A DNA stretch of 33,600 nucleotides from a virus. This document shows positions 1 to 17,029 of this stretch, in pieces; positions within the stretch are counted from its first letter, which is position 1, and the number at the start of each line of letters is the position of its first letter. A program made the translations under genes and the position numbers. Below the pieces are notes generated by a model. The model was not told where the DNA came from. It saw only the letters and a list, made by a program, of their open reading frames with translations, and made no database searches. The DNA lies in the UHGV virus genome UHGV-1067530. One strand, given 5' to 3'.

Positions 1-39
1 AACAAGTTGCTAACAAGTGCCTTAAAAGCATAACTATGT

Positions 40-860
40 AGGGTTTGTTAAGAAAGAAGAGTTGTCATGTTAATAGCTTGTTAAAAAGATTAAACACTTG
101 TTAGGAACTTGTTAATTATCTTAACAAAATAACTCTTTAAAATTAACTTGTTAGTCATCTGTTAAGCATCTGTAAAGCCTATTCAGCACTTGTTAGAAAA
201 CTGTTACAGCCTTGTTAGTTCTGTTAAGAAACTGTTAAGACCTTTAAAGAGTTGTTAAGAAGATGTGAGAACTGTTAAGAGATTGTTAAGGATATTTTAA
301 AATTCTGCAAAGGGGGTGTTAAGGGGCTGTTAAGGGCTACCAAGCAGATATACATCCTAATCAGATATTTTTCAGTTCCTTCAAAGACCCTAAAAAATGA
401 CTTGATAGTCCTATTTTATAAAAATTTTAAAATTCTGAATAATTACCTATACAGTCTTTTAAAAATACAGGTAGAAACAGGCTTATAAGATACCTTGTTA
501 GTACCGTGTTAGACCTTGTGAGATAAGGTCTGTAAAGATATCCCTGTTAAGTTTGTTAAAACAGTCTATATAGAAGCTTAGTAATACCTAGTGAACACCT
601 ATAGAGGGTATCATAGCTAACATAATGGGTTAAGAGGTGTATAGGAGCTTCTAAGAGGGTATAGAGAGGTGGTTAAGGTGATTGTATAGGTTGTTAAGAA
701 GGCTTGTTAGAAGAGTGTTTAGAAGGCTTGTTAGAGGGCTAGTTAGAAGGGTTATACAGAGGGCTATTAAGACCACTAGATAGTTACTAAGATACTATAT
801 AGTACTATATAACTATATAGAGAGTAAGATTAAGAAGGTTGTTAAGAAGGATAGATATTT
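40..860 (+). repeat. Array of ~40 short same-strand repeats (TGTTAR at 46-332 and 497-558; GTTAGAAGG-like at 620-770; ACTATATAG x3 near 790-820), spaced ~10-11 bp
   Basis: Direct reading: TGTTA at 191, 202, 213, 222, 233, 253, 273, 284, 317, 328 etc.; no ORF of 60 aa or more in the region. Confidence 0.7.
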
Positions 861-910
861 TGTTCACATATGATGGTGACCCAGAGGTTGGGACAACCGA
901 TAAAATTTTA

Positions 911-942
911 TAAAAATAAAAAGCCCCCAATTAAGGAGGCTC
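911..942 (-). terminator. Putative intrinsic terminator after the 953-1504 gene
   Basis: On the minus strand: stem GCCTCC/GGGGGC with loop ttaatt, followed by a T-rich run (TTTTTATTTTT). Confidence 0.45.
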
Positions 943-952
943 TTAAGATATT

Positions 953-1504
953 TTAAATCAGTGTTTCCAGAACTGTTTTTAATGATGACTTGGTTGTCTG
1001 ATAAAAATGAGTGAATCCATTGTTGTTATCAAATATCTGCATCATGATATCATCTCCCTTGATTGGGTACACTCGGATATCATAGTGAAACCCATTAAAG
1101 ACAGCAGAACCATTACAGAACACACTAAAATCATCCACTGAGATATACTCTTCATGACCTGTGATTTTTATACAGACACCTTTACTTGGTCTCTTAGGGT
1201 TGATATCTTCCATCACAGACATACTCTGTCCACCAAGAGATACCATCGTGACCACTTTACGGTTCTTCTGTTTAAAGTACATTTTAACTTTCTGTAAAGT
1301 GTCTTCATAGAACGGATAAGACTTTTCTACAAAGATTCCTTCAAGTGGCTCTTTACCATTTCTAACTTCTCTGATATGTCGTACTGAGAAAATAAGTTGC
1401 TCTAGTATGTCAAGACTTTCTTTGGAGAGTGCTTCTCGAACATCACTCCAATCAAGAACTAGGTAGTTACCTTCAACTTCTTTTACATCCATAAGCTCTT
1501 TCAT
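953..1504 (-). CDS. hypothetical protein (183 aa)
   Basis: Intact ORF in a co-directional, tightly packed block; no motif recognised. Confidence 0.5.
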   Translation of the reverse strand: MKELMDVKEVEGNYLVLDWSDVREALSKESLDILEQLIFSVRHIREVRNGKEPLEGIFVEKSYPFYEDTLQKVKMYFKQKNRKVVTMVSLGGQSMSVMEDINPKRPSKGVCIKITGHEEYISVDDFSVFCNGSAVFNGFHYDIRVYPIKGDDIMMQIFDNNNGFTHFYQTTKSSLKTVLETLI

Positions 1505-7854: not shown

Positions 7855-7963
7855 GAAGATAACTTAAAAGGTTCCTCTAAAAAGGCTATTTAAACAGATA
7901 TCTTTCTGGATATCTATCTTTTATCTTAAAAGCCTTTTAAGAGGTCTTATAAGAGGCATACCA

Positions 7964-8335
7964 ATGAAAAACAGAACAAACAAAGGCCAGTTTAAAAAAG
8001 GCCAGTCTGGAAACCCATCTGGAAGACCAAAAGGCTCTCGTAACAAAAGCTCACTCGTAAAAGCTCAACTGACCATTGATAATTCTGCTGAGTTTGCTGC
8101 AAAGTTGTTTGAAGCGATTGTTACAAGGGACGCTGCTAAGCTTGCAGAGTTCGGGTTAAACACAGACGACGTAACCATCAAGAGCATGATTGAGGTCGGT
8201 AAAACTATCATGACCCACTCAGCAGGTGAGATGAAAGCAATTGCAGCAGATACTAAGAAGACTCCTGATAACAGTAGTCAGTCTCAGACAGAAAACAAAC
8301 CAACGTTCTCTGCTGTTGCAACTCTCAAAAAATAA
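7964..8335 (+). CDS. hypothetical basic protein with N-terminal GQSGNPSGRPKGS motif (DUF5681-like)
   Basis: KGQFKKGQSGNPSGRPKGSRNK motif recalled from phage DUF5681-type proteins; not verified by search. Confidence 0.5.
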   Translation: MKNRTNKGQFKKGQSGNPSGRPKGSRNKSSLVKAQLTIDNSAEFAAKLFEAIVTRDAAKLAEFGLNTDDVTIKSMIEVGKTIMTHSAGEMKAIAADTKKTPDNSSQSQTENKPTFSAVATLKK

Positions 8336-8416: not shown

Positions 8417-9832
8417 ATGAGCGAATTATTTAAACATGCGCACCTTCATGCAGGTCGAACTGAAAATGGTGCTGTAAACCATACTTCATCAATGTCTGCT
8501 CTTGTAGACTTTTACAAAGCTGCTGGTTCAAGCCGTAGCAACGTAGAAATCTTACCAGACCTGTTCTACAAAGCTTTGCGTGAGGATGTTGATGTTGCAG
8601 TTCGTATTTTACTGCATATGCGAGATGTACGAGAAGGTATTGGTGAGCGTAAAGCCTTCAGAACTGTTTTGCTTCAAGCAATTGAAGATAAAGTTTTAGA
8701 GCCTACACAGGTTCTTCGCATTATGGATAAGATTGCAGAACTTGGTCGTTTTGATGACTTCAAAATCTTCGTAGGTACTCGTTTCGAGACAGATGCCTTC
8801 AAACATTTAGAAGCAGCATTACTAGACCCTGCAACAGCAGGTTTGGCAGCCAAGTGGCTACCACGAGTCAAACCACGTCATAAGCAGTTTGTAAAACGTT
8901 TCTGTAAGTTTGCCAACTTGAGTGAGAAAGAGTATCGCACACTGTTGTCTGCGCTCTCTGATACAGTTGAGCAAAAAATCTCTGCTAATGAGTTTGGCAA
9001 GATTGACTACAGTAAGATTCCTTCACTTGCTGCTGCACGTTACCAAAAACTGTTTAACCGCAAAGATGGAGAACGCTACAAAGCTTACATCGAGTCCTTA
9101 TCAAAGGGTGAGACTAAGATTAATGCTGGTGCTGTTTACCCATACGATGTGATTAAGTCTGTTAAGTATGGTAATGCAGATGTTGCTAATGAGCAGTGGA
9201 AAGCACTACCAAACTGGATGGCAGAGGGTGAAAACATTCTCTGTATGTCTGATGTTTCACGTTCAATGTCTTGGGTGAATTTTGGCTCCATTACTACTCT
9301 GGATATTGGTGTATCACTTGCATTGTATGTAGCAGAACGCAATACAGGTTGCTTTAAAAATGAGTTAATGGTTTACTCAACAAACCCTCACTTCATCGAA
9401 CTGAGTGGTGATTTACGAAACCGTCATCGTCAGGTGATGCGGCACGTTGAATATGGCTCAACTAACTTACAAGCAGCTTTTGACCGTATTCTTGAGACAG
9501 GTAAAAGAAATAACTTGACTCAGAAAGATATGCCAAGTAAGCTTATCATCTTCTCAGATATGGAGTTCAATCAGGTTGATGGAGCTAACGGTCGCACAAA
9601 CTTTGAAGCAATCCAGAGTAAGTACAAGAAAGCTGGATACGAAATGCCACAACTGGTATTCTGGTACTTAGCAAACCGTAATGGTACTTGCGAAGTATCT
9701 GTTAAGGATAACGGTGTAGCAATGGTATCTGGTTTCTCTCCAGCCACTTTAAAAGCTCTGCTTGGTGGTGAGAAGTTTGACCCTATCAGCGTAATGCTCA
9801 AAGCAGTAATGATTGACCGTTATATCTGGTAA
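8417..9832 (+). CDS. vWA-domain protein with N-terminal alpha-helical domain; possibly Ro60/TROVE-like (DUF2828-type)
   Basis: MIDAS motif in ILCMSDVSRSMS (DxSxS), downstream YGSTNL (T) and LIIFSDMEF (D) at vWA-typical spacing; N-terminal ~270 aa has no motif I recognise; the TROVE assignment is inference. Confidence 0.55.
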   Translation: MSELFKHAHLHAGRTENGAVNHTSSMSALVDFYKAAGSSRSNVEILPDLFYKALREDVDVAVRILLHMRDVREGIGERKAFRTVLLQAIEDKVLEPTQVLRIMDKIAELGRFDDFKIFVGTRFETDAFKHLEAALLDPATAGLAAKWLPRVKPRHKQFVKRFCKFANLSEKEYRTLLSALSDTVEQKISANEFGKIDYSKIPSLAAARYQKLFNRKDGERYKAYIESLSKGETKINAGAVYPYDVIKSVKYGNADVANEQWKALPNWMAEGENILCMSDVSRSMSWVNFGSITTLDIGVSLALYVAERNTGCFKNELMVYSTNPHFIELSGDLRNRHRQVMRHVEYGSTNLQAAFDRILETGKRNNLTQKDMPSKLIIFSDMEFNQVDGANGRTNFEAIQSKYKKAGYEMPQLVFWYLANRNGTCEVSVKDNGVAMVSGFSPATLKALLGGEKFDPISVMLKAVMIDRYIW

Positions 9833-9997: not shown

Positions 9998-10074
9998 CTC
10001 TGTTTAGCTCAGCTTGGTAGAGCGTTCCGTTTGGGGCGGTAAGGCCGGAGGTTCAAGTCCTCCAACAGAGACCA
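9998..10074 (+). tRNA. tRNA-Pro (anticodon TGG)
   Basis: Acceptor CTCTGTT/AACAGAG, D-arm GCTC/GAGC, anticodon loop TTTGGGG, T-arm GGAGG-TTCAAGT-CCTCC, encoded CCA. Confidence 0.8.
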
Positions 10075-10081
10075 AATTAAT

Positions 10082-10159
10082 GTTCCAGTAGACAAAATGG
10101 TATAGTCACCACTCTTTCAAAGTGGATATTTGAGGGTTCAAATCCCTTCTGGAACGCCA
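10082..10159 (+). tRNA. tRNA-Glu (anticodon TTC)
   Basis: Acceptor GTTCCAG/CTGGAAC, anticodon stem CCACT/AGTGG, loop CTTTCAA, T-loop TTCAAAT, CCA. Confidence 0.8.
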
Positions 10160-10162
10160 GTT

Positions 10163-10239
10163 TTGACAGAAGACCAATTACAGCAAACTTAATCTTATTC
10201 ATCTGAAGGTAAATCGGACAAAGAAGAGATTTGGTCTGG
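10163..10239 (+). repeat. Inverted-repeat-bounded element, copy 1 (TTGACAGAAGACC-AA-TTACAGCAA ... TTGGTCTGG)
   Basis: 5' box CAGAAGACC + TTACAGCAA, 3' box GGTCTGG; termini AGACCAA/TTGGTCT are complementary. Confidence 0.6.
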
Positions 10240-10251
10240 TCATTAAGAATT

Positions 10252-10327
10252 GCGGGTATAGAGAAAGGGCGTCTCACATGTCTCATTAGCATGGTATCGG
10301 CAGGTTCGACTCCTGCACCCGCCTCCA
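10252..10327 (+). tRNA. tRNA-Met/Ile2-like (anticodon CAT), slightly irregular acceptor/T-stem register
   Basis: Acceptor GCGGGTA, D-arm GAGA/TCTC, anticodon stem CATGT/GCATG, loop CTCATTA, T-arm GCAGG-TTCGACT-CCTGC; 3' strand ACCCGCC pairs with a 1-nt offset. Confidence 0.5.
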
Positions 10328-10329
10328 AA

Positions 10330-10397
10330 TTTACAGAAGACCGTTTACAGCAATATTTATTAAATTTTTAGCGGAAAAATTGAAAGATGTGGTCTGG
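10330..10397 (+). repeat. Inverted-repeat-bounded element, copy 2 (TTTACAGAAGACCGTTTACAGCAA ... GGTCTGG)
   Basis: 5' 27 nt identical to copy 4; internal AT-rich hairpin AATTTTT/AAAAATT. Confidence 0.6.
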
Positions 10398-10410
10398 TAA
10401 TACTAAACAT

Positions 10411-10487
10411 GGTTAGGAAGCACATAAGGTATGTGCGGTCGCCTGTTAAGCGAATGGCACAGGGTTCGAATCCCTGACTAACCGCCA
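10411..10487 (+). tRNA. tRNA-Asn (anticodon GTT)
   Basis: Acceptor GGTTAGG/ACTAACC, D-arm GCAC/GTGC, anticodon loop CTGTTAA, T-arm CAGGG-TTCGAAT-CCCTG, discriminator G, CCA. Confidence 0.75.
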
Positions 10488-10556
10488 AATTTAGGAGAGA
10501 AGCGATTGCTCACCGATTTGTAAGGTGCAAGTCCTTAGCCTGAATAGAAATTAAAT

Positions 10557-10644
10557 GTGTCGTTATCCCGTAGATGGTAGCGGTGGGGACTGTAAATCCC
10601 TTGTCATTGAGACTCGGTAGGTTCGACTCCTACACGGCACACCA
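10557..10644 (+). tRNA. tRNA-Tyr (anticodon GTA), long variable arm
   Basis: Acceptor GTGTCGT/ACGGCAC, anticodon loop CTGTAAA, ~15-nt variable arm, T-arm GTAGG-TTCGACT-CCTAC, CCA. Confidence 0.7.
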
Positions 10645-10649
10645 ACAAA

Positions 10650-10727
10650 GGTTATGTAGTTTAATTTGGTTAAAATACTCCCCTGTCACGGGAGATGATG
10701 AGGGTTCAAATCCCTTCGTAACCGCCA
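10650..10727 (+). tRNA. tRNA-Asp (anticodon GTC)
   Basis: Acceptor GGTTATG/CGTAACC, anticodon stem CTCCC/GGGAG, loop CTGTCAC, T-loop TTCAAAT, CCA. Confidence 0.75.
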
Positions 10728-10788
10728 ATTTTGAGAGGGCTATTTAGCCCCTCCCTTAAAGAGTTCTTACGAGTATTCTTTAAAGGAG

Positions 10789-10862
10789 CAGAAGACCAAA
10801 TACAGCAAGTTACTTAAAATTTCAAGCCAATTTAATTTTGAAAAATTTAAAACTTGGTCTGG
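10789..10862 (+). repeat. Inverted-repeat-bounded element, copy 3 (CAGAAGACC-AAA-TACAGCAA ... TTGGTCTGG)
   Basis: Same terminal boxes; interior is a long AT-rich imperfect hairpin (CAAGTTACTTAAAATTTCAA / TTGAAAAATTTAAAACTTG). Confidence 0.6.
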
Positions 10863-10871
10863 CTCAACAAA

Positions 10872-11006
10872 TTTACAGAAGACCGTTTACAGCAAAACTT
10901 AAACAATCTATTTCTCGGTAAAGAAAAGGAGAAGGTTCGATTCCTTCACTCGGCAGGTGTCGAGTTGGTGTAATGGTAGCACTTAAGATGATAAACAACG
11001 GTCTGG
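10872..11006 (+). repeat. Inverted-repeat-bounded element, copy 4 (TTTACAGAAGACCGTT ... AACGGTCTGG), containing tRNA-like fragments
   Basis: 8-bp terminal complementarity AGACCGTT/AACGGTCT; interior holds a T-arm (GAAGG-TTCGATT-CCTTC) followed by a D-arm-like segment. Confidence 0.6.
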
Positions 11007-11007
11007 T

Positions 11008-11151
11008 AATTATCTTTGTAGATAAGTTATTAAGCTTACCTGTGAGTATGCGACCACAAAGGGTGAAAGGGTAAATTCTAGATTTAAACCCAAAAAGGCA
11101 CATCGCTACAGACCTTAAGCAAGTCTGGGTAGCTTATCTACAAAGATAATT
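11008..11151 (+). repeat. 19-bp perfect inverted repeat (AATTATCTTTGTAGATAAG / CTTATCTACAAAGATAATT) flanking 106 nt
   Basis: Read directly: 11008-11026 is the exact reverse complement of 11133-11151; the interior contains CAGACC...GTCTGG. Confidence 0.7.
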
Positions 11152-11155
11152 TAAT

Positions 11156-11231
11156 GGAAGTGTAGCAGAATGGTGATGCGGCAGACTTTTAATCTGACAG
11201 GCGATGGGTTCGAATCCCTCCACTTCTACCA
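11156..11231 (+). tRNA. tRNA-Lys (anticodon TTT)
   Basis: Acceptor GGAAGTG/CACTTCT (G1-U72 wobble), anticodon loop CTTTTAA, T-loop TTCGAAT, discriminator A, CCA. Confidence 0.7.
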
Positions 11232-11235
11232 ATAT

Positions 11236-11312
11236 GGTTCAGTCGCAGATAAGGTAATGCAAGGGTCTCATAAGCCCTATGAATGTGGGTTCGATTCCCA
11301 TCTGAACCTCCA
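11236..11312 (+). tRNA. tRNA-Met or Ile2 (anticodon CAT)
   Basis: Acceptor GGTTCAG/CTGAACC, anticodon stem AGGGT/GCCCT, loop CTCATAA, T-arm TGGG-TTCGATT-CCCA, CCA. Confidence 0.75.
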
Positions 11313-11314
11313 AT

Positions 11315-11389
11315 TGTGGGTTAGCATAAATGGTAATGCAAACGGCTGATAACCGTTAGAAGAGGGTTCGATACCCTCACCTACAACCA
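11315..11389 (+). tRNA. tRNA-Ile (anticodon GAT)
   Basis: Acceptor TGTGGGT/ACCTACA, D-arm GCA/TGC, anticodon stem AACGG/CCGTT, loop CTGATAA, T-arm GAGGG-TTCGATA-CCCTC, CCA. Confidence 0.75.
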
Positions 11390-11404
11390 ATTTCAATAAA
11401 GTTG

Positions 11405-11433
11405 TTGACATTGAGATGTGACTACTTTATAGT
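11405..11433 (+). promoter_or_regulatory. Putative sigma70-like promoter inside the tRNA array
   Basis: aaagttgTTGACA (11405-11410), 17-nt spacer, TATAGT (11428-11433). Confidence 0.45.
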
Positions 11434-11439
11434 AACTAA

Positions 11440-11726
11440 AATACTTCAGAATATGTATAATTCAAACACCAATACATGAGCGTTAGACGTAACACAATGT
11501 GGGGAAATTTGTTGTACATATTCTGAATAGTTTTCGTTGCGTAGCGTCTATTTTGCAAATTTAAAATAAATGCAAACGACAATGTTTTTCTGGCAGTAGC
11601 TTGATAGGCTAAACACCAGTGAGGTCTTCCAATCCCTCATCAAAGAATTTGGCGTACTAGCCCACGGTATGATTAATAAGGTGGGCATCTTTAAGGGCTT
11701 TCTAAGAGAGTCTTTAAAGATAATTA
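11440..11726 (+). ncRNA. Candidate structured non-coding RNA region (ORF-free, multiple hairpins)
   Basis: No ORF of 60 aa or more; 13-bp perfect inverted repeat TTCAGAATATGTA (11445-11457) / TACATATTCTGAA (11515-11527); hairpins GCCCAC...GTGGGC, TGAGG...CCTCA, TTTGCA...TGCAAA; sits downstream of the 11405 promoter. Confidence 0.35.
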
Positions 11727-11808
11727 CGGGGCGTATCTCAGCGGTCTTCTAAACCGCCGTTAACCGAGTAAGTGGAGTATGCGGGTTCGAGTCCTGCCGC
11801 CTCGACCA
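11727..11808 (+). tRNA. tRNA-like, Arg(TCT)-type anticodon arm, atypical (no canonical D-arm, 23-nt segment before the T-arm)
   Basis: Acceptor CGGGGCG/CGCCTCG, anticodon stem GCGGT/ACCGC with loop CTTCTAA, T-arm GCGGG-TTCGAGT-CCTGC, discriminator A, CCA; the D-arm 3' strand is not identifiable. Confidence 0.45.
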
Positions 11809-11950
11809 ATTAGTTAGCAGATTACTTAGACGACCTAAGCGGGTCTTCCTGTAGGGAGGTGGTCTGTATCTCATGTTTTCCAGAACATGTAAATAATCTG
11901 AGAAGGGGCTTTACAGTGTTGAGATAATACGGTAAGCTTCGAATTATAGT

Positions 11951-12033
11951 ATGGGACGATGTTAAGACTCTAAGGCATGAGCAACGGCTTCCAACACCGT
12001 TTCAAAGGGGTTCAACTCCTCCGTCCCATGCCA
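11951..12033 (+). tRNA. tRNA-like, Trp(CCA)-type anticodon loop, atypical (7 extra nt in the D region)
   Basis: Acceptor ATGGGAC/GTCCCAT perfect, hairpin ACGGC-TTCCAAC-ACCGT, T-arm AGGGG-TTCAACT-CCTCC, discriminator G, CCA; D region is 26 nt. Confidence 0.4.
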
Positions 12034-12046
12034 AAGTCTTATTAGG

Positions 12047-12134
12047 GGTAGGTAGCGGCTAATGGTAGCCAAACTGTCTTGAAAACAGTTGCCACTGTAG
12101 AGATACGGTGAGGGTTCGACTCCTTTACTTACCG
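12047..12134 (+). tRNA. tRNA-Ser (anticodon TGA), long variable arm; CCA not encoded
   Basis: Acceptor GGTAGGT/ACTTACC, anticodon stem ACTGT/ACAGT, loop CTTGAAA, ~20-nt variable arm, T-arm GAGGG-TTCGACT-CCTTT, discriminator G. Confidence 0.7.
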
Positions 12135-12137
12135 CCT

Positions 12138-12391
12138 AATAAGATTTAAAGCCAAGCTTCATTCGGATGTCGCTTTGGTATCCCGCGTGTATTGTCGTAC
12201 ACACTGATAAAACACCTAGTAGGTGTCACGGAGAAGAGATAATATCAAGCTCTCCAAAGGTTCTAGTCACCGGATTAAACAAGACTATGCAAAGACCTTT
12301 TTAGGTCTTTTTAGAGGGCTTCTAAGGTTATTACAGCTTGTTGTGGAACCTTGTTGCTTAGGTTCTTAGAAGTTCTCTAAAAAGATTTAAT
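12138..12391 (+). ncRNA. Candidate structured non-coding region (hairpins, terminator-like stem, long CTTCTAAG/CTTAGAAG hairpin)
   Basis: ORF-free; hairpins GTGTA...TACAC, ACACCTA...TAGGTGT, GGAGA...TCTCC; AAAGACC-TTTTT-AGGTCTTT followed by a T-run (about 12288-12312); inverted repeat CTTCTAAG (12320) / CTTAGAAG (12365). Confidence 0.3.
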
Positions 12392-12469
12392 GGGAGATTG
12401 ACGGTAATTGGTAAACCTACCATCCTTAGAAGTTGGTGTTTGAGGGTTCGAATCCCTTGTCTCCTACCA
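12392..12469 (+). tRNA. tRNA with Leu-type anticodon TAG but short (5-nt) variable loop
   Basis: Acceptor GGGAGAT/GTCTCCT, anticodon stem CCATC/GTTGG (one U-U), loop CTTAGAA, T-arm GAGGG-TTCGAAT-CCCTT, discriminator A, CCA. Confidence 0.55.
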
Positions 12470-12476
12470 AATTAAT

Positions 12477-12552
12477 GCAGGTGTAGCAAAATGGTTATGC
12501 GGCTGACTCTTAATCAGTAAGACGATGGGTTCAATTCCCTCCACCTGTACCA
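12477..12552 (+). tRNA. tRNA-Lys (anticodon CTT)
   Basis: Acceptor GCAGGTG/CACCTGT, anticodon stem GCTGA/TCAGT, loop CTCTTAA, T-loop TTCAATT, discriminator A, CCA; close paralog of the 11156 tRNA. Confidence 0.7.
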
Positions 12553-12558
12553 GACATT

Positions 12559-12634
12559 TGGGTCATAGTTTATATGGTTAAAATTCGAGTTTTGCAAACT
12601 TGGGAACTGAGTTCAATTCTCAGTGACTCCACCA
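12559..12634 (+). tRNA. tRNA-Ala (anticodon TGC)
   Basis: G3-U70 wobble present in the acceptor (TGGGTCA/TGACTCC), anticodon stem CGAGT/ACTTG, loop TTTGCAA, T-arm CTGAG-TTCAATT-CTCAG, discriminator A, CCA; 1-72 is unpaired (T/C). Confidence 0.7.
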
Positions 12635-12640
12635 ATTAGT

Positions 12641-12715
12641 GCATCCATAGTTTAAACGGGAAAATTACAGTCTTCCAAACTGAGGTTGAGGGTTCGATTC
12701 CCTCTGGATGCTCCA
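12641..12715 (+). tRNA. tRNA-Gly (anticodon TCC)
   Basis: Acceptor GCATCCA/TGGATGC perfect, anticodon loop CTTCCAA, T-arm GAGGG-TTCGATT-CCCTC, CCA. Confidence 0.75.
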
Positions 12716-12721
12716 AACAAT

Positions 12722-12798
12722 GCTGCTTTCGTATAATTGGCTATTACACATCCCTTGTAAGGATGGAAATGCAGGTTCGAGTCCTGTGAGCAGCACCA
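12722..12798 (+). tRNA. tRNA-Thr (anticodon TGT)
   Basis: Acceptor GCTGCTT/GAGCAGC, anticodon stem CATCC/GGATG, loop CTTGTAA, T-arm GCAGG-TTCGAGT-CCTGT, discriminator A, CCA. Confidence 0.8.
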
Positions 12799-12799
12799 A

Positions 12800-12893
12800 T
12801 TCAGAGGTCAAGTGAAAGACCGCTGGTGTCAACTGAAGACCGTAACAAATTCCACGGAGTTGAGTTAGCGGCACAACTTCAGACCTCTTTCAC
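12800..12893 (+). repeat. Repeat/palindrome-rich spacer related to the CAGAAGACC element family
   Basis: CTGAAGACCGTAACA (12836-) resembles the 5' box; AGAGGTC...GACCTCT and CTGAAG...CTTCAG inverted repeats. Confidence 0.4.
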
Positions 12894-12968
12894 ACTCGCT
12901 TAGTTTATATGGTAAAACATCACCCTTACAAGATGAAGAAAAAGGTTCAAGTCCTTTAGTGAGTACCA
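12894..12968 (+). tRNA. tRNA-Val (anticodon TAC)
   Basis: Acceptor ACTCGCT/AGTGAGT, D-stem GTTT, anticodon loop CTTACAA, T-arm AAAGG-TTCAAGT-CCTTT, discriminator A, CCA. Confidence 0.65.
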
Positions 12969-12969
12969 T

Positions 12970-13047
12970 GTTCCAGTATCCCAATTGGCAGAGGATGCAA
13001 GCTCAAACCTTGTATTAGTGACGGTTCGAATCCGTCTTGGAACACCA
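12970..13047 (+). tRNA. tRNA with Leu-type anticodon CAA but short (6-nt) variable loop
   Basis: Acceptor GTTCCAG/TTGGAAC, D-loop AATTGGCAGAG, anticodon stem TGCAAG/CTTGTA with loop CTCAAAC, T-arm GACGG-TTCGAAT-CCGTC, discriminator A, CCA. Confidence 0.55.
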
Positions 13048-13065
13048 ATTTAAAGAGGCTATTTA

Positions 13066-13623
13066 ATGAGATATTTGAAGTATGCTTCATGGATTTTCTT
13101 AGCTTTACTAGACCCAATTGCAGCAATCCTAGCAGTTATCTTAGCACCTTTCGTAGTTCCATTCTACAGTGAGAAGAAAGGACATCTACCTTTTGGATTC
13201 AGATGGATGGAGACCTATGACAACCCGATTGATGGTGACGAAGGTCACGTTAAAAGATGGGCTAAGATTAGAAAGATTGGTAAGCTGGGTGTCTACATGC
13301 AGAGAGTTGGGTGGCTCTGGAGAAACAAAGCTTATAACTTCTCTTACCATGTATTAGGAAGAGATGTAAAAGATGTTACTAAGTGGAGAGGTAATATCAA
13401 CGTAAGTTCTGACCCTGAAGATAATCAGACTGGTTATCTCCTAATGTGGAACAACAATGCTTGGGGATTATTCGCTTTTATTCCGTCAATTAAAGTCTTT
13501 GGTAAACAGTTTTACTGGAGAATTTATGTTGGATGGAAACTAAAAAGTGTTGTCCCAGAAGAAAGAGCATTCTCAAGGGAAAGAGTTATGTTGGCATTCT
13601 TTATTCATCCACTGAGAAAGTAA
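13066..13623 (+). CDS. hypothetical membrane protein (185 aa) embedded in the tRNA array
   Basis: ORF with RBS aaagagg upstream; N-terminal hydrophobic helix WIFLALLDPIAAILAVILAPFVVPF; Trp/Arg-rich remainder. Confidence 0.6.
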   Translation: MRYLKYASWIFLALLDPIAAILAVILAPFVVPFYSEKKGHLPFGFRWMETYDNPIDGDEGHVKRWAKIRKIGKLGVYMQRVGWLWRNKAYNFSYHVLGRDVKDVTKWRGNINVSSDPEDNQTGYLLMWNNNAWGLFAFIPSIKVFGKQFYWRIYVGWKLKSVVPEERAFSRERVMLAFFIHPLRK

Positions 13624-13631
13624 AGATTTAA

Positions 13632-13707
13632 AGGGGATTAGTTTACAAGGTTAAAACCTCGGTCTTTGAAATCGAAGAAGTTGGTTCAATTCCAACATCC
13701 CCCGCCA
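13632..13707 (+). tRNA. tRNA-Gln (anticodon TTG)
   Basis: Acceptor AGGGGAT/ATCCCCC with unpaired 1-72, discriminator G, anticodon stem TCGGT/ATCGA, loop CTTTGAA, T-arm GTTGG-TTCAATT-CCAAC, CCA. Confidence 0.7.
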
Positions 13708-13709
13708 AT

Positions 13710-13788
13710 GCTCCATTACTCCAATTGGCAGAGAGGCCAGACTTAAAATCTGTGTTATGTATCGGTTCGAATCCGATATGGAGTACCA
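13710..13788 (+). tRNA. tRNA with Leu-type anticodon TAA but short (7-nt) variable loop
   Basis: Acceptor GCTCCAT/ATGGAGT, D-loop AATTGGCAGAG, anticodon stem CCAGA/TCTGT, loop CTTAAAA, T-arm ATCGG-TTCGAAT-CCGAT, discriminator A, CCA. Confidence 0.55.
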
Positions 13789-13793
13789 ATTTT

Positions 13794-13869
13794 AGCGGTA
13801 TAGCATAACTGGCAATGCAGCAGTCTCTGAAGCTGTCCTATTAAGGTTCAAATCCTTATGCCGCTGCCA
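13794..13869 (+). tRNA. tRNA-Gln (anticodon CTG)
   Basis: Acceptor AGCGGTA/TGCCGCT, D-arm GCAT/ATGC, anticodon loop CTCTGAA, T-arm TAAGG-TTCAAAT-CCTTA, discriminator G, CCA. Confidence 0.7.
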
Positions 13870-13900
13870 CTTCTAAGGGTTCTTACGAGAGTCCTTAAAT

Positions 13901-13976
13901 GTGGCCTTATCATAAACGGTAATGACCCATGCTGTGAACATGGTCTATACGGGTTCAAATCCCGTAGGTCACCCCA
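13901..13976 (+). tRNA. tRNA-His (anticodon GTG)
   Basis: Acceptor GTGGCCT/AGGTCAC, D-arm TCAT/ATGA, anticodon stem CCATG/CATGG, loop CTGTGAA, T-arm ACGGG-TTCAAAT-CCCGT, discriminator C, CCA; position -1 is T, not G. Confidence 0.8.
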
Positions 13977-13981
13977 ATTTA

Positions 13982-14058
13982 TAGTCCAAGTAGCTTATAT
14001 GGTTAAAGCGCGTGTCTGAAAAACATGAGAAGAGGGTTCAAATCCCACTGGACTACCA
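13982..14058 (+). tRNA. tRNA-Phe (anticodon GAA), acceptor register slightly irregular
   Basis: D-arm GCTT/AAGC, anticodon stem CGTGT/ACATG, loop CTGAAAA, T-loop TTCAAAT; acceptor TAGTCCA/TGGACTA pairs perfectly but leaves a 4-nt linker before the D-stem. Confidence 0.6.
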
Positions 14059-14074
14059 ATTTCAAAGGTGCTTA

Positions 14075-14809
14075 ATGAAAGAGATGACAGGACAAGGTAA
14101 GGAGATTTTTAATCTCTTAAAAACCGGTAAAGGGTTTTCTAACCCACTTATTACTGGTGCAGCAGTTCTCGGTGGAACCGTAGCTGCCTCTACATCACTT
14201 GTAAGCTCTATTAGCTCTGTAACAGACCCGACAATGAATGAGAAACTTGTTGCTGCTGGACTTACAACAGTCCTTCTAAACAGCTTTACAACAAGCCTGA
14301 CAAGCACTACAGCAACTACTAAGACCCTAACAGACTATGGTCAAAAGTCTATTGATGAGTTTTCATCACGTATGCAGGTAGCAAAGGGGTATTCCAATGT
14401 TATGGGTGCAGCAGGAGAACAAGTTGGTTGTACACCATTCAGTGGTATTATGGGTGTTGCTACAGAGTATGGTCAAAAAGCTATTGACATGATTAACAGC
14501 ACACTAGACAGTGTTAACGGTGTGTTAAGTGACTTACAAGACGCTATTGATAAGGGTCTTGATACTGTTTCTGATTTAGCTAATCAAGCTGTTAGCAAGA
14601 TTAATGAAGGTATCTCAAAGATTACAGCTTATGCAGATGAAGTTGTGCAGATGATTGAAGAAGAAGCTGCCCTTATTGCAGAGTACCTTAAAACGAATAT
14701 CAATGGGTTCTTAGCAGGTATCTTACCAGACTGGTTTGATGATGCTCGCAAAACTGGTGTAATCGACACTATTGCAACACCAGAAATGAAGAACGCATTA
14801 CAGAAATAA
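14075..14809 (+). CDS. hypothetical Ser/Thr-rich protein (244 aa)
   Basis: The ORF track starts at 14012 inside tRNA-Phe; first ATG with an upstream aaagg RBS is 14075 (MKEMTGQ...); S/T-rich N-half, helical C-half. Confidence 0.55.
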   Translation: MKEMTGQGKEIFNLLKTGKGFSNPLITGAAVLGGTVAASTSLVSSISSVTDPTMNEKLVAAGLTTVLLNSFTTSLTSTTATTKTLTDYGQKSIDEFSSRMQVAKGYSNVMGAAGEQVGCTPFSGIMGVATEYGQKAIDMINSTLDSVNGVLSDLQDAIDKGLDTVSDLANQAVSKINEGISKITAYADEVVQMIEEEAALIAEYLKTNINGFLAGILPDWFDDARKTGVIDTIATPEMKNALQK

Positions 14810-14810
14810 T

Positions 14811-14903
14811 GGAAGATTAACCCTAAAAGGTAAGGGAGCAGTTTGCTAAACTGCCAGTAGCTGAGAAATCGGTGTACCAGTTCAAGTCTGGTATCTTCCT
14901 CCA
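14811..14903 (+). tRNA. tRNA-Ser (anticodon GCT), long variable arm
   Basis: Acceptor GGAAGAT/ATCTTCC perfect, D-stem CCC/GGG, anticodon stem GCAGT/ACTGC, loop TTGCTAA, ~20-nt variable arm, T-arm ACCAG-TTCAAGT-CTGGT, CCA. Confidence 0.8.
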
Positions 14904-14907
14904 ATCT

Positions 14908-14983
14908 GAATCCGTGACAGAAATGGATATGTGCCTGTCTGCAAAACAGGTTTATAAGGGTTCAAGTCCCTTCGGATTCTCCA
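14908..14983 (+). tRNA. tRNA-Cys (anticodon GCA)
   Basis: Acceptor GAATCCG/CGGATTC perfect, anticodon stem CCTGT/ACAGG, loop CTGCAAA, T-arm AAGGG-TTCAAGT-CCCTT, discriminator T, CCA. Confidence 0.8.
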
Positions 14984-15406: not shown

Positions 15407-15427
15407 TTCTATTTGCGGAGGCGCTTA

Positions 15428-17029
15428 ATGGACTTAAATGCTGTTAAGCAGAAGCGAGTGGAAGATGTTAGGAAAGTCCTAGCTGGAGAGTTGGGGCTTT
15501 CTGATGAAGTAAAAGAAATTATCAAATCATTCGGTAAAGACCCCTCTAAATTCCTTCCAACTCAAATTCTGACTTTATTAAGATACACACCAGACCAAGT
15601 TCGCCTTATCTTTAAATTGATGACTGATAAGAACTATGTAGCCCCTCAGCCGGGTTCTCAAGAGGTCTTTTTAAACACTAATGCTGACTTGGTTCTCTAT
15701 GGTGGTGCTGCTGGTGCTGGTAAGACTGCTGCATTGTTAATGGACTCTTTAAGATTTATTGAAGACCCTAACTATAATGCTGTGTATTTCCGTCGAAACA
15801 CAACACAGTTACAAGGTGGTTTATGGCCTGCTGCAAAGAAACTATTTGGTAAGTTTGGTGGGATTCCTCACGAGCAGAAAATGACTATCACATTCCCTTC
15901 TGGGGCGACTATCAAGTTTACCTATCTAGAACTTGAAAAGCACGCTGAAGGTCATCAGGGTATTGAATACTCAGCTATTTACTTTGACGAAGGTACACAC
16001 TTCTCTGCTTCACAGATTTCATACCTACAAACCCGTCTACGTTCTGGTGCTGAAGGTGATTCATACATGAAGATTTCCATGAACCCAGACAGAGACCACT
16101 TTATTTATGATTGGGTAGAGCCATTCTTAGATGAAGGAGGTTATCCAGACCCTGAAAAGTGTGGTCGTATTCGTTGGTATGTAATGAATGATGGTGTGAT
16201 GGTTTCTGATTGGGAGAGAGACAAGATTCTTGAAATGTTCCCTCTTGAGATTCCTCAAACATACACCTTTATCTCTGGTACGATTGATGATAACCCAATC
16301 CTTGACTTCTTAGAACCAAAGTATCGCGGTAAGCTTGAAAACAACACTCCTGTGAACGTTGCAAGACTTCGTTTCGGTAACTGGAAGGCTCGTGCAGAAG
16401 GTTCAAACTATTGGCAAAGACAATGGTGTGAAATTGTTGATTCACTCCCAGAAGATGTATTTGATGTTAGAGCATGGGACTTAGCAGCAACTTTACCATC
16501 TGAGATTAACCCTAATCCAGACTGGACAGCAGGTGTTAAGATGGGTAAATCTAAAAAAGACGGTTGCTATTATATCATTGATGTAGTAAGATTTAGAGAT
16601 AGACCCTCTGGAGTCGAAACACAAATTAATTTGACTGCTGAAAGTGACGGTAAGCGAACTGGTATTTTTATCCCTCAAGACCCAGGCGCTGCTGGTAAAT
16701 CCTACGCGACATCCCTCATCAGGAAACTTGCCGAGAAAGGCTATCGTGCAAGAGCTAAACCAACAAATAAAGATAAAGTTACCCGCTTTGCGGGATTTTC
16801 TGCTGCTTCTGAAGCTGGACTTGTAAAAGTTTTGAGAGGTAGTTGGAACGAAGCTTATTTCCAAGAGCTTGAAGGCTTTTGTGGTGATGGCAAAACTAAA
16901 GATGACCAAGTGGATGCTACCAGTGATGCTTTCAACAGTCTTAACGAAGTTAAATTATTCAAGCCACCATCAATGGGTGCTCACACAGACTTAGTGAGAG
17001 GAAACCCATATGAGGGGCTTAGACGTTGA
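15428..17029 (+). CDS. Terminase large subunit
   Basis: Walker A LYGGAAGAGKT, Walker B-like AIYFDEGTH, C-terminal nuclease-like region; ATG at 15428 with RBS gcggagg (the ORF track start at 15413 is a TTG). Confidence 0.85.
   Translation: MDLNAVKQKRVEDVRKVLAGELGLSDEVKEIIKSFGKDPSKFLPTQILTLLRYTPDQVRLIFKLMTDKNYVAPQPGSQEVFLNTNADLVLYGGAAGAGKTAALLMDSLRFIEDPNYNAVYFRRNTTQLQGGLWPAAKKLFGKFGGIPHEQKMTITFPSGATIKFTYLELEKHAEGHQGIEYSAIYFDEGTHFSASQISYLQTRLRSGAEGDSYMKISMNPDRDHFIYDWVEPFLDEGGYPDPEKCGRIRWYVMNDGVMVSDWERDKILEMFPLEIPQTYTFISGTIDDNPILDFLEPKYRGKLENNTPVNVARLRFGNWKARAEGSNYWQRQWCEIVDSLPEDVFDVRAWDLAATLPSEINPNPDWTAGVKMGKSKKDGCYYIIDVVRFRDRPSGVETQINLTAESDGKRTGIFIPQDPGAAGKSYATSLIRKLAEKGYRARAKPTNKDKVTRFAGFSAASEAGLVKVLRGSWNEAYFQELEGFCGDGKTKDDQVDATSDAFNSLNEVKLFKPPSMGAHTDLVRGNPYEGLRR

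Follow-up and report, generated by a model that had tools for sequence, protein, structure and literature searches.

A phased array of short repeats in the terminal repeat of a Felix O1-like phage: a candidate platform for packaging and genome-end generation

The repeat array and its setting

The DNA considered here is a stretch of 33,600 nucleotides from virus genome UHGV-1067530 (hereafter, the window), the left edge of which is occupied by a non-coding array of short TGTTAR-type repeats at positions 40-860. Between positions 49 and 20000 the window matches Felixounavirus, the Felix O1-like myoviruses, at 96-99.5% identity, with VSe11, ST11, Mushroom and Felix O1 among the best matches; for VSe11, Mushroom and Felix O1, megablast gave 97-99.5%. 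Judging from this similarity, the source of the window is a Felix O1-like Salmonella phage of the genus Felixounavirus.

In Felix O1, the array sits in a geneless gap of 1.6 kb where two operons converge, between the rightward ORF23 and the leftward ORF24; the equivalent gap of VSe11 measures 1.9 kb. The window begins within this gap, hence only its right part is visible, and in relatives the array extends about 290 bp further left within a terminal repeat, plus about 420 bp beyond it. The right limit of the non-coding junction is set by the gene nearest to the array, which is the last of the leftward block (953-1504, - strand) and encodes a 183-residue protein of unknown function assigned to phrog_4330. 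The intrinsic terminator of this block reads from 944 to 919 on the - strand, beside the array, where an earlier description of the locus made from its letters (the sequence-only reading) had placed it.

The same description had found no open reading frame (ORF) in the region, and this was borne out: ORFs in the array region encode only 33-41 amino acids, no 3-bp periodicity is present, and relatives differ by 11-bp insertions or deletions. The 33-residue ORF at 682-783 (+ strand) encodes an arginine-rich (LVRR)n peptide spanning a 12-bp tandem repeat; its TTG start is missing in Felix O1, which makes a genuine gene improbable. Hypothetical proteins have been called within the junction in several GenBank records, and the sole existing annotation of its internal repeats is a plain repeat_region feature covering the 12-bp block in some Danish wastewater phages, including skuden. 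A search of Rfam with window positions 1-1100 at E <= 1 returned a best E-value of 0.041, far below the gathering score and located on the terminator, and a sigma-70 promoter scan gave 5 sites against 4.3 expected, so promoters are unsupported. The original Felix O1 paper inferred short terminal repeats and did not describe the junction region (PMC3185647). The main text of the PhageMaP paper on Bas63 gives no result for it, and the literature found on Felix O1-like phages gives the lengths of terminal repeats, with no mention found of internal repeats, an assigned small terminase or an origin.

The repeat array is strongly non-random. All 24 copies of TGTTAR in window positions 1-900 are on the + strand, in agreement with the same-strand arrangement described earlier, whereas the remaining 32.7 kb has 37 copies on the + strand and 19 on the - strand. 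The window contains 25 copies of TGTTAAG, where shuffled sequences have 9.0 +/- 3.1, and 13 of them lie within the first 850 bp; when one mismatch is allowed, 40-860 holds 23 copies on the + strand and one on the - strand, against 3.0 +/- 1.7 in shuffles. The ten TGTTA positions listed by the sequence-only reading (191, 202, 213, 222, 233, 253, 273, 284, 317 and 328) are all correct, 202 being TGTTAC, whereas its estimate of about 40 copies is reached only with loose variants, strict counts giving 24-30. The 16 sites at 40-345 share the consensus YTGTTAR(G)(A)(A), in which T-G-T-T-A is invariant.

These sites are spaced by the helical turn. For the 16 GTTAR sites at 40-345 the best period is 10.3 bp (Rayleigh R = 0.82, p ~0.0015, corrected for the scan of 91 periods between 7 and 16 bp). 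The autocorrelation of the bases, computed independently of the motif, peaks at lags 11 (z 6.6), 31, 20 and 42, while coding controls peak at multiples of 3, and Tandem Repeats Finder (TRF) detects period-11 arrays at 156-178, 221-290, 310-336 and 491-512. The phasing at 10-11 bp, claimed earlier for the whole of the array, thus holds for 40-345 only: at 480-860 it is not significant (p 0.15), and 691-766 repeats in tandem at 12 bp (z 6.2 at lag 12; 4.9 copies by TRF).

The direct terminal repeat and its conservation

The phased block coincides with a genome end known from relatives. Both genome ends of CRP22 are identical (100%) over 579 bp and those of MET-P1-301 over 544 bp, while Pr103Blw carries at 1-581 a repeat_region annotated as 'short direct terminal repeat region', a direct terminal repeat (DTR) obtained with PhageTerm (PMC8303462). 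The DTRs of CRP22 and Pr103Blw begin with GCCCCCTTAACA and finish with ...TGTTAAGGGCTACC. Because CRP22 276-579 aligns to window 49-341 (CRP22 276 with window 49 and CRP22 579 with window 341, the counterpart in Pr103Blw being ~279-581), the roughly 293 bp at 49-341, with their 16 YTGTTAR(G)(A) sites in 10.3-bp phase on the + strand, almost certainly represent the right half of a DTR of about 580-590 bp, with the right genome terminus after position 341. With the same confidence, positions 342-950 are the unique non-coding leader which runs from the left DTR copy to the first leftward gene block, and in a replicating concatemer the region is the junction between two genomes, with converging, terminated operons on both sides. 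One DTR copy lies in the window; the presence of the same sequence at both ends was established for the relatives.

Lengths reported for other members of the group are consistent with this placement. In UAB_Phi87 a DTR of 608 bp was determined by Bal31 digestion and run-off sequencing (PMC4837284), and the boundary words of that genome are 614 bp apart; in Ro111lw, PhageTerm gave 613 bp (PMC6454146). The Kolesnikvirus SPARTY has a 439-bp DTR by PhageTerm (PMC8928762), which agrees with the homologous boundary at ~437 in the Erwinia phage Hena2. The right boundary, GGGCTACC/AAGCAGATAT (that is ...TGTTAAGGGCTACC/AAGCAG, the slash marking the terminus), is identical in 38 related loci, and both boundary sequences are conserved in 30-38 loci. 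The terminal site pair TGTTAAGGGGC TGTTAAGGGCTACC occupies 317-341 on the + strand, and the last site finishes 8 bp short of the right terminus. Read outward, the outermost sites are TGTTAAGGGGGC/TAGC on the left and TGTTAAGGGCTACC/AAGC on the right, and are inverted copies of each other. Beside the cut site, the helical phase shows a period of 10.3-10.4 bp with R 0.80-0.95.

Mushroom, together with 19 further relatives of full length, gave the complete anatomy of the junction. The DTR opens with ~45 bp in which TTAACA, the - strand form of the motif, appears three times at 11-bp intervals; a short non-repetitive spacer follows and then the orientation switches, after which come about 20 strict + strand copies together with the variants TGTAAAG, CTTAAAAG and TATAAAG. 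Overall, about 30 sites fill the repeat and lie on one face of the helix, all facing the right terminus, with the exception of the inverted first three and of a single stray - strand copy (window 120-126). Across the whole 580-bp DTR of Mushroom the sites are phase-coherent at 10.4 bp (R 0.80, p<0.0005); the same coherence is found in Moogle and SUSP1 and, in Hena2, in the last 200 bp of the repeat (the last ten sites, 10.3 bp). The flanks are mirrored, with CTCTATA and CTTAAAAG dominating the + strand on the left and TATAGAG, TAAGAGG and TTAGAAGG on the right.

Aligned across these 20 relatives, the non-coding junction shows higher conservation than its flanking ORFs, a sign that the region is functional. 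Compared with Moogle (Mooglevirus) and SUSP1 (Suspvirus), conservation peaks at 199-498, astride the terminus, with 81-83% identity versus 50-75% in the neighbouring genes, and the polar, mirrored layout is kept in Mooglevirus, Suspvirus and Kolesnikvirus. In the last of these, the Erwinia phages, BLAST detects only window 230-354. The DTR of Hena2 has TGTTAR 12 times on the + strand and 5 times on the - strand, the latter at the left end, while its right flank holds TTAAGA on the + strand alone, 8 times, and its left flank holds the complementary TTCTAA 11 times and TTAGAA not once. The Pectobacterium phage Arno162, a more distant member of the Ounavirinae, has the same convergent gap (1.47 kb), enriched in TGTTAA/TTAACA and retaining the core GATATTTTAAAATTTTGCA. 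Among the junction loci of relatives (L001-L041), the DTR length predicted from the distance between boundary words in 31 relatives ranges from 567 to 658 bp in steps of ~11 bp (R 0.76-0.81, p 0.0005), and repeat units are therefore gained and lost whole. In Felix O1, for example, one 11-bp unit is added near window 150, and 24 bp, equal to two 12-bp units, are missing from 691-766.

The leader directly to the right of the terminus is highly conserved and reaches 82% AT at 342-480, with an AT-rich stretch of 80-82% at 395-475. An exact 14-bp direct repeat, ATTTTAAAATTCTG, occurs on the + strand at 294-307 and 424-437, 130 bp apart and once on each side of the DTR boundary; its first copy lies in a deeply conserved core, GATATTTTAAAATTCTGCAAAGG, recognisable in both Hena2 and Arno162. 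A second cluster of TGTTAG/TGTTAA sites follows at 491-560 (+ strand), with pairs spaced at 11 and 9 bp and the variants TGTGAG and TGTAAAG, and then a cluster of the TATAGAG/TAAGAGG type at 561-690, on the + strand only, which in relatives is mirrored by CTCTATA across the DTR. The 12-bp tandem repeat at 691-766 (+ strand) consists of about five copies of TTGTTAGAAGGC, and its copy number varies among relatives. The three trailing copies reported earlier are real, and can be specified as ACTATATAG at 794, ACTATATAA at 804 and ACTATATAG at 812, that is, three ACTATATA(G/A) copies within 793-821 (+ strand). The final site pair before the terminator is GATTAAGAAGG TTGTTAAGAAGG at 828-850 (+ strand).

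The very start of the window is anomalous. Positions 1-55 match, in reverse complement, DTR positions 25-79 of the relatives (100% identity to Mushroom), and this inverted piece (1-48) is fused to DTR position ~288 via a 7-bp microhomology, TAAGAAA, at window 49-55. Of 254 related GenBank records, none aligns collinearly with window 1-110; an exact search of IMG/VR for the junction at the window start returned 0 matches. The window start is either a private inversion between opposed TGTTAAGAAA sites or a chimera at the end of the contig.

A putative packaging platform and its candidate binding protein

The best explanation of these observations is that the array is probably a cis-acting platform for packaging and for the generation of genome ends. 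We lean, if only slightly, towards the YTGTTARG sites being the predicted binding sites of a phage packaging protein. The packaging machinery would assemble on the array in concatemers. A spacing of 10.3-10.4 bp puts all sites on the same helical face, where an oligomeric protein could reach one minor groove after the next and so wrap or stiffen the whole repeat. The nuclease of the terminase would then be placed at the two symmetric boundary sites. In the classical T7-type model, two-fold symmetric, staggered nicks at the boundaries are followed by strand-displacement synthesis through the repeat. Here, the repeat would likewise be duplicated by strand-displacement synthesis, so that each packaged genome gains a full DTR copy. 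The words TATAGAG, TTAGAAGG and CTTAAAAG, mirrored in the flanks, could act as accessory sites of the same nucleoprotein complex.

A small terminase would be the most plausible binder, and none has been identified in this genus (PMC4837284). The candidate is a DUF5681 protein of 123 residues encoded at 7964-8335 (+ strand), the first gene of the rightward late block. In six distant genomic contexts of DUF5681, the gene of the large terminase subunit (TerL) lies directly downstream in four clear cases and one weak case: in P0048 and P0041 a Terminase_6N/3/3C gene is downstream and overlaps the DUF5681 gene, in P0054 and P0047 the downstream gene is a phrog_38 TerL (2e-99 and 5e-72), P0053 is weak (4e-6) and P0057 has none. 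By this gene order, the DUF5681 protein is probably the small terminase missing from Felix O1-like phages. Its invariant N-terminal arm, FKKGQSGNPSGRPKGSRNK (GNPSGRPKGSRNK), resembles an AT-hook and is identical in 9 of 12 positions to AT-hook 2 of human HMGA1, and a DUF5681 oligomer with minor-groove-binding arms would hypothetically suit TTAA cores one helical turn apart. A phmmer search with the protein against PDB sequences returned no match, and Pfam, NCBIfam and PHROGs provided neither a terminase match nor a functional name. When the six distant DUF5681-bearing contigs were searched for similar phased arrays, poly-A runs only were found.

The TerL of the phage itself is encoded at 15413-17029 (+ strand) and carries the TIGR01630 domain, its assignment to the DTR-generating clade being taken from the tree in PMC4837284. 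The 91-residue ORF directly upstream of TerL likewise received no functional name from NCBIfam or PHROGs. The interval from the candidate small terminase gene to TerL contains a gene for a 471-residue protein (8417-9832, + strand; phrog_850 'RNA-binding protein', Pfam DUF7788 and DUF2828), followed by 24 tRNA genes at 9998-14983. The PhageMaP paper on Bas63 describes gp130, directly upstream of the tRNA cluster, as Ro60-like, and this matches the 471-residue gene by position alone.

The leader of the DUF5681 gene (7863-7953) contains three of the seven CTTAAAAG copies of the window, both strands counted, plus TTTTAAGAGG and CTTATAAGAGG. These three words also fill the left half of the DTR and its left flank in relatives, and in Arno162 the equivalent leader has 5 TTAACA. 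The sharing of words may reflect autoregulation or a shared binding protein.

Several points weigh against the platform and against its proposed binder. The link between array and terminase is drawn from position and architecture, and the putative small-terminase assignment of DUF5681 from gene order alone; no source was found which names the DUF5681 protein a terminase. Its AlphaFold2 model is mediocre (mean predicted local distance difference test score, pLDDT, 68), consisting of a disordered arm followed by a helical hairpin, and Foldseek found no match to this model in the PDB at E < 1. The candidate gene is 7.6 kb from the array and about 7 kb from TerL, the latter interval being mostly tRNA genes. 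The repeat-bearing DNA spans 1.6-1.9 kb, which exceeds the needs of known terminase recognition sites, and its second block has a 12-bp period, which is not helical. The inverted likeness of the boundaries is clear in Felixounavirus, Mooglevirus and Suspvirus and not obvious in Hena2. Finally, the termini were mapped in relatives, and the window start of this isolate is rearranged with respect to all of them. As for the distance of the candidate gene, a site of the pac type is expected within or next to the small terminase gene, and here that gene is 7.6 kb away; a distant small-terminase gene is usual for T7-type DTR phages, unlike those with pac sites of the SPP1/P22 type.

Alternative explanations, known systems and significance

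The sequence-only reading had left open a choice between an iteron-type replication origin, a partition site, a packaging site and curved DNA wrapped by a protein. The packaging and genome-end option gained support, with the phased block forming the right half of the DTR and its last site lying at the mapped terminus, and wrapping by a protein is a reasonable inference; the iteron-origin and partition options lack the features that define them.

A replication origin, in which the repeats would be iteron-like initiator sites and the AT-rich stretch at 395-475 the unwinding element, is the main alternative, and we consider it unlikely. The direct repeats do adjoin a stretch of 80-82% AT, the region is transcriptionally quiet between converging operons, and its sequence is strongly conserved; the iteron origins of P1, F, pSC101 and lambda (lambda ori) similarly have clustered direct repeats beside an AT-rich stretch. 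However, the units here measure 6-9 bp at a spacing of 10.4 bp, against 17-22-bp iterons spaced ~22 bp, so both unit and spacing are half those of the known origins. No DnaA box with at most one mismatch was found in window 1-1000, and no initiator gene is adjacent: the neighbouring genes encode small proteins of unknown function with no replication match in Pfam or PHROGs, and in VSe11 the same leftward block is annotated with a lysin and a tail protein. An origin would also leave unexplained why the array stops at the mapped terminus and is mirrored about the repeat. As to partition, a centromere of the parS/parC type was rejected, as no Par-family match to Pfam or PHROGs was found among the ten flanking ORFs scanned. 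The centromere parC of plasmid R1, bound by ParR, has ten 11-bp iterons. It would resemble the present array in its 11-bp direct repeats in helical phase and in forming a continuous protein-DNA superstructure; in contrast, the ORFs checked here include no ParR/ParM-type genes, the phage is lytic and the array coincides with the genome termini.

A role in handling the genome ends other than packaging, whereby a bound protein protects or tethers the ends, or paces or pauses the ejection of DNA, appears slightly less probable than an origin. The terminal repeat of phage T5 contains a repeat-rich 'injection stop' region for which a pacing of ejection has been proposed. In the phage studied here the array lies inside and beside the terminal repeat, its sites are polar and both ends of the virion DNA carry it. 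On the other side, no two-step DNA transfer was found reported for Felix O1-like phages and no candidate protein is known, while the inverted boundary copies and the 11-bp quanta of length better fit cutting and measuring.

A structural or silencing function that needs no phage protein of its own and depends on intrinsic curvature, or on host nucleoid proteins of the H-NS, Fis or IHF type, is decidedly improbable. The DNA is AT-rich, and a wedge model ranks the local curvature of the segment 31-330 among the highest 2% of 300-bp windows, at 12.1 versus 8.8 degrees per turn. Its global compaction is nevertheless ordinary (end-to-end ratio 0.77, with 22% of control segments lower). As the wedge-model curvature is raised only moderately, intrinsic curvature was rejected as the main explanation; moreover, the exact TGTTA core in all 16 sites, kept across genera, indicates base-specific reading over shape alone. 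A non-functional slippage satellite, a non-coding RNA or a small-peptide gene is very improbable: unit-wise variation in copy number, the hypothetical proteins of GenBank and the arginine-rich 33-residue ORF would fit, but the region is more conserved across genera than the adjacent genes, has no Rfam match and only a chance number of promoter-like sites, the start of that ORF is missing in Felix O1, and 11-bp indels break the reading frames.

For the packaging platform, the closest analogue would be the concatemer junction of phage T7, in which Dunn and Studier (1983) reportedly described a 160-bp terminal repeat flanked by arrays of short repeats. When the T7 sequence (L050/L051) was re-examined, one strand of 161-400, just beyond the right edge of the 160-bp repeat, was found to carry eight CCTAAAG copies at a 13-bp period (z 8.8); the repeat itself holds three more, and related words lie to the left of the right repeat. 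In both systems the DTR is short and exact, the non-coding DNA is converging or terminal, and many 7-bp words of the TAAAG type lie on one strand beside and inside the repeat. They differ in that the T7 period of 13 bp is not helical and its array mainly flanks the 160-bp repeat, whereas the Felix O1 type has a repeat of 580 bp, four times the length, occupied throughout by about 30 sites at 10.4 bp, which flip orientation 45 bp from its left end and reach within 8 bp of the terminus. T7 also has a small terminase that is recognised as such, gp18, encoded next to gp19, and there is no alignable sequence homology between the junctions. The words CTATAGAG, TAAGAGGG and TAAAG-type heptamers are found in both junctions, which could be convergence or a common preference of DTR-type terminases.

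Other comparisons, like that with R1 parC, are functional analogies and not relationships. The pac sites of SPP1/SF6-type phages, wrapped by the small terminase, and the cosB of lambda, with its R sites and an IHF bend, have 2-4 repeats over 100-200 bp. The likeness would consist in short repeats on one helical face and in an oligomeric small terminase which bends or wraps the DNA and positions the large subunit. The difference is that those sites lie in or beside the small terminase gene and serve headful or cos packaging, whereas here the candidate gene is 7.6 kb away from about 30 sites that extend over 0.6-1.6 kb, in a phage with exact-DTR packaging.

Taken together, the array and the DUF5681 protein may tentatively represent an unrecognised mode of terminase-DNA recognition, although the odds are against this joint proposal. 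A small-terminase oligomer devoid of a helix-turn-helix would use AT-hook-like arms on ~30 phased TTAA minor grooves and coat the whole repeat, and the inverted outermost sites would fix both nicks, so that the length of the DTR would be set, and evolve, in whole helical turns; autoregulation via the CTTAAAAG cluster in the leader may apply. The DTR was already known for the genus; the phased, polar and mirrored layout of its sites, the quantisation of its length and the link with DUF5681 appear to be undescribed.

Felix O1-like phages are widely used in the typing, diagnostics and biocontrol of Salmonella and E. coli, and hundreds of their deposited genomes start at arbitrary points and carry spurious 'hypothetical proteins' in the junction. 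The boundary words GCCCCCTTAACA... and ...TGTTAAGGGCTACC offer a rule, based on the sequence only, to orient and close such genomes, while recognising the junction explains the assembly breaks which occur here and marks DNA to be kept intact in engineered phages. More broadly, how the ends are chosen and duplicated in exact-DTR phages is poorly understood outside T7; with a long, regular and polymorphic array and a candidate for the 'missing' small terminase, the Felix O1-like family makes this question directly testable.

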